Shown in pieces: positions 6,642 to 7,426 of a stretch of 17,580 bases of DNA (positions within the stretch are counted from its first letter, which is position 1; each line of letters begins with the position of its first letter). This DNA is from a virus (Duplodnaviria > Heunggongvirae > Uroviricota > Caudoviricetes), in IMG/VR virus record IMGVR_UViG_2563366883_000005, positions 1 to 17,580 of that record; one strand, written 5' to 3'. The notes under the pieces were generated by a model, which did no database searches, was not told the origin of the DNA, and saw only the letters and a program-made list of their open reading frames with translations. A program made the translations under genes and the position numbers.

Positions 6642-6890
6642 ATGAAAGGTGCAAGAGATATCAGTCCCTTGGGAATTAGGATTCCAGACTATTTAAAGAA
6701 ACGCATTCAGCAGGAAGCGGATAAAAACGGCAGATCAATGAACTCAGAGATTGTGCTTATCCTTCAAAAACATGTTGATAATCTTGATGGCCCTCGCTCA
6801 CTTGAAGGATTCGCTAACCAAGAAGCTGACAAATTCAAAGAGGCGCTGCTTGAGACGCTAAAGACCATGTATGGTAAGGATGAAAAATAA
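6642..6890 (+). CDS. mnt: Mnt-like repressor (RHH N-terminal domain plus C-terminal oligomerisation helix)
   Basis: ATG 6642 with SD AGGAGG 5 nt upstream. The 82 aa sequence MKGARDISPLGIRIP..NGRSMNSEIV..LETLKTMYGK resembles remembered P22 Mnt (ARDDPHFNFRMP..NGRSMNSELL..FDTLKDLYKK) along its length. Confidence 0.7.
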   Translation: MKGARDISPLGIRIPDYLKKRIQQEADKNGRSMNSEIVLILQKHVDNLDGPRSLEGFANQEADKFKEALLETLKTMYGKDEK

Positions 6891-7426
6891 TGCTGCACAC
6901 AATTCATTTCTTATGCCCCGTTAACACTGCCACTGTTGGGCAACTTCAGAACCACTGTCTCACCGCATTATCTCAAGGCGCAACTGAATTAAATATCCAT
7001 ATATCAAGTCAGGGAGGGGAAACTGCCGCTGGCTTTACTGCGTATAACTTTCTTAAGTCACTCCCTGTTACCGTTAGAACTCACAACATAAGCAATGTTG
7101 AATCCATAGCTAATATCGTTTTCCTGGCTGGCTCAGAACGTTTCGCAAACCCATTATCAAGATTCCTGTTACATCCTCTATTATGGGTCTTTGCCACCCC
7201 AGCCGCCGACCATGCCAGATTGAGAGAGTACGGGAAATGCCTCGATAACGATCTTGATCGCTTCGTTGAGACGTTCAATATCGACATCGGAACCCATATT
7301 AGGTGGGCATCCCTGATAGCAGACTCGACCATTTTGGATGCTAACAAGGCTCTTGAGCATGGCATAATTAATTCCATAAAAACTGCAAGGCTGGCATCCA
7401 ATCAGGCAAACTGGTGGGTTGTTTGA
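6890..7426 (+). CDS. ClpP-fold (S14-like) protein lacking the N-terminal axial region; putative Ser and His retained, Asp position occupied by Asn
   Basis: 178 aa, translationally coupled to mnt (TAATG overlap). Manual alignment to E. coli ClpP: IHISSQGG vs INSPGG; ESIANIVFLAG vs AASMGAFLLTAG (Ser aligned); RFANPLSRFLLHP vs RFCLPNSRVMIHQP (His aligned); KALEHGIINSI vs EAVEYGLVDSI (Asp replaced by Asn). The protein begins about 25 residues into the ClpP fold. Confidence 0.65.
   Translation: MLHTIHFLCPVNTATVGQLQNHCLTALSQGATELNIHISSQGGETAAGFTAYNFLKSLPVTVRTHNISNVESIANIVFLAGSERFANPLSRFLLHPLLWVFATPAADHARLREYGKCLDNDLDRFVETFNIDIGTHIRWASLIADSTILDANKALEHGIINSIKTARLASNQANWWVV

Follow-up and report, generated by a model that had tools for sequence, protein, structure and literature searches.

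A short ClpP-like peptidase subunit encoded behind mnt in a P22-type immI module of a lambda-like prophage

What might a ClpP-like peptidase subunit do for a temperate phage that encodes it directly behind a repressor gene? The question is raised by a 17,580-nucleotide (nt) stretch of tailed-phage DNA (Caudoviricetes; positions 1 to 17,580 of IMG/VR record IMGVR_UViG_2563366883_000005), hereafter the window. It covers the tail region of a lambda-like prophage, encoded on the minus strand, into which an immI module of the P22 type is inserted between tail genes K and L. Downstream of the Mnt-like repressor gene of this module lies a gene for a 178-amino-acid (aa) relative of ClpP. Judged from alignments, its product is best filed as a phage-borne member of the short ClpP family typified by PpClpP1 of Pseudomonas plecoglossicida, which is a distinct subfamily of ClpP. 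As to its function, we favour, at a probability of roughly 50%, a heterocomplex model in which a ring of phage subunits would stack on a ring of host ClpP and alter Clp-dependent proteolysis in the lysogen.

The open reading frame proved to be a genuine gene, whose ATG (6890-6892) shares one base with the TAA stop codon (6888-6890) of the mnt-like gene, in the TAATG overlap reported earlier. Its product scored 44.9 bits with Pfam PF00574 (CLP_protease), for which the gathering score is 20.2 (expectation value, E = 1.6e-11), residues 24-165 lying on profile positions 37-180; this places it in the ClpP/S14 group. Among Protein Data Bank (PDB) chains, phmmer returned 9UXT (E = 2e-35, residues 3-175) and ClpP1 of Mycobacterium tuberculosis (E about 5e-7). 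An AlphaFold2 model of the 178-aa protein, computed with a 38-sequence alignment as input, had a mean predicted local distance difference test (pLDDT) score of 92.7. Foldseek superposed this predicted model on chain 9uxt_A with a template-modelling (TM) score of 0.94 and a root-mean-square deviation of 1.6; the second-best structural match was 4ryf, and the ClpP proteins of Escherichia coli, Staphylococcus aureus and Thermus gave TM scores of 0.82-0.84. Profile search, phmmer, AlphaFold2 and Foldseek thus agree on the ClpP kinship that a preliminary description of the window had proposed from alignment by eye, and the predicted fold is the head-plus-handle fold of ClpP. The handle helix is present in the model at residues 108-132, which makes ring-ring stacking plausible.

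Compared with canonical subunits, the protein starts late. A MAFFT alignment that included the ClpP proteins of E. coli and S. aureus puts Met1 on residue 39 of the E. coli precursor, which is mature residue 25. The protein thus lacks the first 24 mature residues, and with them helix A and the axial loops, and the loss of the axial-loop region noted in the preliminary description stands. All NCBIfam cut-offs for ClpP were missed (TIGR00493, 18.5 versus 308.6; PRK00277, 30.7 versus 249; PRK12553, 40.1 versus 228), and the closest viral structure found in a BFVD fold search was only about 24% identical. The gene is under strong purifying selection, with a ratio of nonsynonymous to synonymous substitution rates (dN/dS) of 0.08 and a dS of 1.6 between the E. 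coli and Pectobacterium copies. At its C terminus the protein carries an aromatic N-W-W-V tail (window positions ~7406-7423) that is conserved in the family, is predicted to form a strand at residues 173-177 and is without counterpart in the ClpP proteins of E. coli and S. aureus.

To assign the active site, triad positions were numbered by counting in mature E. coli ClpP (193 aa; 97/122/171) and in S. aureus ClpP (98/123/172). Ser72 and His95 of the phage protein align with ClpP Ser97 and His122, matching the earlier reading of these two positions, and are invariant in 65 of 65 close relatives as well as in all 142 distant representatives of the family. The oxyanion residue Gly43 is likewise invariant. 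The third residue of the triad had been described as an Asp-to-Asn replacement, read from GIINSI in the phage protein against GLVDSI in ClpP. This turned out to be a misalignment: the Asp of GLVDSI is the non-catalytic Asp186, and the column of its equivalent, Asn161, is variable (H/T/N/S/Q/E). The catalytic Asp171 of mature E. coli ClpP lies in TERDRFLS, 15 residues before Asp186, and aligns with Ser146 of the phage protein. In the close relatives this column holds Ala (36), Ser (22), Gly (4) or Thr (2), with Pro in PpClpP1, and among the 142 distant representatives Gly or Ala predominates in it (G/A/R/P/S), with Glu in 7; Asp occurs in neither set. The HMMER alignment independently opens a gap at the catalytic Asp of M. 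tuberculosis ClpP1. Because the Asp171 column is occupied by Ser146 here and never by Asp in the family, the phage protein is, like its family, a Ser-His dyad enzyme with no acidic third residue and not an Asn variant of the Listeria ClpP1 kind. The revised assignment, from an Asp-to-Asn variant to a Ser-His dyad ClpP, is new.

The statement in the preliminary description that no characterised counterpart was known is out of date as far as the protein is concerned, given the sequence and structure matches to 9UXT. That entry is PpClpP1 of P. plecoglossicida, published in PLoS Pathog 2026 (PMC12900304). PpClpP1 is N-terminally truncated, has a 'Ser-His-Pro' active site and forms a homotetradecamer with an axial pore of 42.7 Å (PMC12900304). 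Its peptidase activity is 13-fold below that of the canonical PpClpP2; Ser-to-Ala or His-to-Ala substitution abolishes it, a change of the Pro causes partial loss only, and neither ClpX nor acyldepsipeptide (ADEP) is bound (PMC12900304). PpClpP1 and PpClpP2 co-purify as a heterotetradecamer of higher activity, with which ClpX-dependent degradation proceeds faster, and deletion of PpClpP1 leads to growth and motility defects (PMC12900304). PpClpP1 and the phage protein (183 versus 178 aa) begin at the same point, both lacking axial loops and helix A; they have Ser and His at the same positions and a non-acidic residue in the Asp171 column, which is Pro in PpClpP1 and Ser146 here. Their identity is 38% in the Foldseek alignment and about 45% by eye in the phmmer alignment. 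The phage copy is carried by a temperate phage together with mnt, whereas the close relatives of PpClpP1 are chromosomal and lie beside KGG and DUF6555 genes. An unstudied prophage gene is now tied to a protein whose structure has been solved and whose hetero-assembly is known. When residues are counted in the deposited 9UXT chain, Pro151 of the paper corresponds to Pro150, while S73, H96, F98, W100, T101, S117 and D121 agree.

Set beside other ClpP relatives, the phage protein resembles canonical E. coli ClpP in fold (TM about 0.83) and has its oxyanion Gly as well as its catalytic Ser and His, but identity is about 20%, mature residues 1-24 and the catalytic Asp are missing, and the N-W-W-V tail is extra. 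The two also differ in the pocket that receives the IGF/LGF loops of the unfoldases, which we take to comprise Y60, Y62, F82, I90, L114 and L189 of ClpP. On this residue list the pocket is hydrophobic in canonical ClpP and polar in the phage protein, where the aligned positions read N35, H37, S57, H65, N87 and K164. We infer that the phage protein would not dock ClpX or ClpA by itself. Partnerships of an unequal kind are found in L. monocytogenes ClpP1/2, M. tuberculosis ClpP1P2 and P. aeruginosa ClpP1/ClpP2, in which an atypical or weak paralogue gains function on a canonical ring. Those second paralogues are host-encoded, retain their N-terminal regions and carry Asp or Asn (Asn in L. monocytogenes ClpP1) at the position that truly completes the triad, whereas the protein described here is phage-borne, has no N-terminal region and has no polar third residue of the Asp/Asn kind.

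The heterocomplex model connects these features as follows. As the second gene of the mnt operon, the ClpP-like gene would be expressed in the lysogen alongside Mnt, from Pmnt, the TAATG overlap coupling its translation to that of mnt. Homology with PpClpP1 suggests that the product would assemble into heptameric rings with a wide-open axial pore that are weakly active as peptidases and do not dock ClpX or ClpA on their own. One such ring and one ring of host ClpP could then form a mixed tetradecamer, which would take ClpX and ClpA substrates through the host ring, and Clp-dependent proteolysis in the lysogen would be changed, probably raised. The gene would be an accessory moron that benefits the lysogen or the prophage and plays no part in virion assembly; the physiological benefit to the lysogen is something that we infer. 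We favour the heterocomplex because it is the only behaviour demonstrated in the family and because it would explain why a weak, partner-less peptidase has been retained. If the phage copy does stack on host ClpP, prophages would modulate a central protease that controls RpoS, the SOS response and phage regulators. A more far-reaching proposal is that a gate-less ClpP ring, expressed in lysogeny and spread by temperate phages of Enterobacterales, docks on host ClpP and reprograms ClpXP and ClpAP, thereby stabilising lysogeny (for instance by clearing antirepressor or switch proteins) or excluding superinfecting phages. This we regard as speculative and on balance unlikely. If true, it would amount to a previously undescribed prophage takeover of a host protease, and the Pseudomonas 'ClpP1' would be a member of a mobile family.

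The distribution of the gene bears on how far it belongs to phages and to Mnt. Of 5426 complete E. coli genomes, 128 carry it, among them those of APEC O1, CE10 and the type strain, and these 128 copies are all at least 99% identical. The prokaryotic genome annotation pipeline (PGAP) names the product 'ATP-dependent Clp protease proteolytic subunit'. An 'Arc family' gene adjoins it in 28 of the 30 E. coli records listed, the other two being 5'-truncated matches. The P22-like (Lederbergvirus) elements of APEC O1 and CE10 and phiv205-1 carry, in this order, genes for the tailspike, ant, arc / mnt, the ClpP-like protein and the ejection proteins; this stretch is the variable 'ant moron' region from gene 16 to gene 9. 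The mnt-ClpP-like order is kept in Pectobacterium (79% identity) and in Providencia (65%), where a 30-base-pair (bp) gap replaces the overlap. Leclercia (74%), Klebsiella and related bacteria (57%) and Rahnella (53%) have a solitary antisense gene flanked by the lysis cassette and the terminase; the solitary antisense gene of Pantoea and related Enterobacterales (44-60%) lies within tail or baseplate modules. The coupling to Mnt is accordingly no trait of the family and is limited in this neighbourhood survey to the P22-type immI modules of Escherichia, Pectobacterium and Providencia. What every enterobacterial context examined has in common is a moron-like position antisense to late genes. 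An all-against-all BLAST comparison of up to three genes on each side of the ClpP-like gene, covering 36 of 40 related loci, revealed no conserved neighbour beyond the tail genes common to Pantoea and no AAA+ partner. Clustered at 50% identity, the wider family comprises at least 228 clusters (E up to 1e-30), whose members are mostly 180-200 aa long. Its Pseudomonas members related to PpClpP1 (67-88% identity to it) are chromosomal rather than in prophages and, in the putida and fluorescens groups, adjoin KGG stress-protein genes and a DUF6555 gene. The PpClpP1 paper does not discuss this neighbourhood, and the word 'prophage' is absent from it (PMC12900304).

Within enteric bacteria the gene travels as a unit. 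Nucleotide identity to APEC O1 and phiv205-1 is about 40-65% until about position 6840, in the last 50 nt of mnt, where it climbs to 97-100%; it drops after about position 7440, just past the stop codon of the ClpP-like gene. The near-identical piece (~6840 to ~7440) takes in the C-terminal helix of Mnt. The ClpP-like proteins are 99% identical in this comparison beside Mnt proteins that are 61% identical; the gene therefore moves in a cassette of about 600 bp that is independent of Mnt DNA-binding specificity. Both the prophage and moron setting of the gene in enteric bacteria and its mobility as a ~600-bp cassette are new.

Several points weigh against the heterocomplex model. The heterotetradecamer of PpClpP1 was obtained by co-expression in E. 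coli and studied by in vitro assays, not in the native cell (PMC12900304). By our assessment, the biochemistry so far comes from PpClpP1, a Pseudomonas member of the family, and not from the phage-borne copies. The phage protein is about 38-45% identical to PpClpP1 and would meet E. coli ClpP instead of PpClpP2, so hetero-assembly may not transfer. The location of the Pseudomonas branch near stress genes suggests that the ancestral role may be general proteostasis and not specific to phages. A simple promoter scan did not detect Pmnt, from which the gene would be expressed in the lysogen; it picked up only the promoter directed toward arc-ant and a match internal to the ClpP-like gene (7341-7368) that is probably spurious. 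Finally, the contrast between 61% identity in Mnt and 99% in the ClpP-like protein, an independent cassette and the many relatives without mnt mean that the link to Mnt may be just a convenient lysogenic promoter.

The main rival holds that the protein works without host ClpP, as a stand-alone, ATPase-independent peptidase with an open pore that degrades peptides or unfolded proteins. Its substrates could possibly be proteins ejected by superinfecting phages, in which case it would serve exclusion or defence from the slot of sieA, or else damaged proteins in cells that are starved and poor in ATP. E. coli ClpP with N-terminal deletions lets unfolded substrates enter without an unfoldase, which fits this explanation, as do the location of the gene in moron hotspots where defence and exclusion genes are typically found, the position of P22 sieA among them, and the proximity of the Pseudomonas copies to KGG stress-protein genes. 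PpClpP1 is itself an active homotetradecamer with a 42.7 Å pore, but its intrinsic activity is low and is higher in the heterocomplex (PMC12900304). A defence role, in turn, receives no help from PADLOC-DB 2.0, in which the ClpP-like, Mnt-like and Arc-like proteins matched no families at E up to 1, or from literature searches on phage or prophage ClpP-like morons, on defence, on immI or sieA with Clp and on phiv205-1 and PhiR12, which found nothing on the gene or on a defence role for it. Deletion of the whole phiv205-1 prophage is said to affect biofilm formation and adhesion, a phenotype that is not attributable to the ClpP-like gene. Taken together, we consider a stand-alone peptidase possible but rather doubtful. 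Less probable again is a dominant-negative subunit that titrates host ClpP and stabilises ClpXP and ClpAP substrates such as phage regulators. The protein lacks the N-terminal loops and, on the residue list that we assumed above, has polar residues in its docking pocket; in a mixed complex, moreover, a ring that offers no docking sites would leave half as many faces for unfoldases to bind. PpClpP1 fails to bind ClpX, yet PpClpP1P2-ClpX degrades faster than P2-ClpX (PMC12900304), the reverse of what a competitor should achieve. The invariance of Ser and His in 142 of 142 representatives and the dN/dS of 0.08 indicate that catalysis is selected for, although a pure blocker could do without it. 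Thus, of the two actions on host ClpP raised in the preliminary description, co-assembly now has a precedent in a homologue, whereas competition by an inactive subunit is made unlikely by the strict conservation of the catalytic residues.

Two further explanations were considered and rejected. A small ribbon-helix-helix gene overlapping a downstream effector is the typical layout of a type II toxin-antitoxin pair, and a gate-less ClpP could in principle harm the cell, much as ADEP-activated ClpP is toxic, with the ribbon-helix-helix protein neutralising or repressing it. Here, however, that protein is a full-length Mnt homologue within a complete ant-sar-arc-mnt module; relatives of the ClpP-like protein at 57-74% identity are solitary and have no ribbon-helix-helix gene; no neighbour is conserved across the 36 loci compared; and the cassette is 99% identical beside Mnt proteins of just 61% identity. 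PpClpP1 could be overexpressed in E. coli, and its deletion slows growth (PMC12900304), neither of which suits a toxin. Given solitary homologues, no fixed partner and mosaicism that breaks mnt near its 3' end, such a pair is very improbable. We give still less credence to the idea that the gene is a remnant or duplicate of one for a ClpP-related prohead protease and does nothing in the lysogen. The best PHROG match is indeed phrog_94, 'head maturation protease' (75 bits), the top two NCBIfam matches are models of ClpP-like prohead proteases, and one GenBank record carries such a label. Head maturation proteases related to ClpP also share the N-terminal start point and a Trp four residues after the catalytic His, and profiles score them about equally with cellular ClpPs; two profiles rank the closeness to the two groups in opposite order, by small margins. 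The score against NF045542 is nevertheless 49.7 against a cut-off of 120. True examples lie on the late strand in the portal-capsid interval, measure 268-317 aa, have a C-terminal extension and retain Glu in the Asp171 column, whereas the 178-aa protein consists of the protease domain only and is encoded antisense to the late operon, downstream of mnt, by a gene under purifying selection. P22-like phages, to our knowledge, use no prohead protease. Position, strand, length and score led us to reject this explanation.

The setting of the gene confirms the Mnt-like nature of its upstream neighbour. The 82-aa protein is homologous to P22 Mnt over its full length, with 32.5% identity over residues 4-79 (tblastn against records annotated mnt), and PGAP annotates a 249-nt 'Arc family' gene at the mnt position in identical genomes. 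Together, ant, sar, arc and mnt form a complete P22-type immI module in divergent arrangement (Table 1), in the same order as in P22. The P22 site has no protease gene, whereas here the ClpP-like gene follows mnt; and where P22 has sieA, in the region from gene 16 to gene 9, P22-like prophages have the ClpP-like gene. In those prophages it lies between mnt and the ejection-protein genes, while here the whole module lies between the lambda-type tail genes K and L. The control region between arc and mnt contains four direct repeats of CTACACNGTG, that is, CTACAC(C/T/A)GTG, and one inverted copy, CACTGTGTAG, which are candidate Arc/Mnt operators and presumably differ from the operators of P22. 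A sigma-70-like promoter directed toward arc-ant (TTGACT-16-TAGTAT) runs from 6591 to 6564 on the minus strand, and the terminator-like hairpin of sar lies at 6361-6392.

Table 1. Features of the window around the ClpP-like gene, with positions in the 17,580-nt stretch (CDS, coding sequence).
Feature	Position	Strand	Remarks
Tail gene J	260-3841	-	
Tail gene I	4044-4724	-	
Tail gene K	4622-5359	-	
Antirepressor Ant CDS	5414-6328	-	Bro-N and P22AR_C domains (Pfam, 73.3 and 89 bits)
sar antisense RNA	6330-6396	+	Rfam RF00262, 69.4 bits against a gathering score of 43; between ant and arc
Arc-like repressor CDS	6391-6531	-	46 aa; Pfam Arc, 46.8 bits; 141-nt gene in PGAP
arc/mnt divergent control region	6532-6641		110 bp; candidate operators; putative function by analogy with P22 Pant/Pmnt
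Mnt-like ribbon-helix-helix repressor CDS	6642-6890	+	82 aa; start after AGGAGG; Pfam Arc, 32.6 bits
ClpP-like CDS	6890-7426	+	178 aa; N-terminally truncated peptidase subunit of the PpClpP1 type
Ser72 codon	7103-7105	+	Equivalent of ClpP Ser97
His95 codon	7172-7174	+	Equivalent of ClpP His122
Ser146 codon	7325-7327	+	ClpP Asp171 column
Asn161 codon	7370-7372	+	Equivalent of ClpP Asp186; triad position in the preliminary description
GC-rich hairpin, then T-run	7457-7474	-	Between the ClpP-like stop and tail gene L; right-hand end of the cassette
Tail gene L	7483-8235	-	Pfam
Tail gene M	9748-10089	-	
Tape measure	10082-13324	-	More tail genes beyond

The order K, ant-arc, mnt-ClpP-like gene, L recurs in the plaque-forming Escherichia phage PhiR12_5, which is 100% identical to the window across 6300-7380 and 97-100% identical up to 7560. 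Farther along the minus strand, upstream of the head-tail connector genes, an open reading frame of 299 aa (16307-17206) gave only a sub-threshold Pfam match, to CBM_5_12. Between L and M lies a gene for an OmpC/OmpF-type porin of 387 aa (8378-9541, minus strand; Pfam Porin_1, 465 bits); since L and M abut in the otherwise near-identical PhiR12_5, the porin gene is a second moron of the tail operon.

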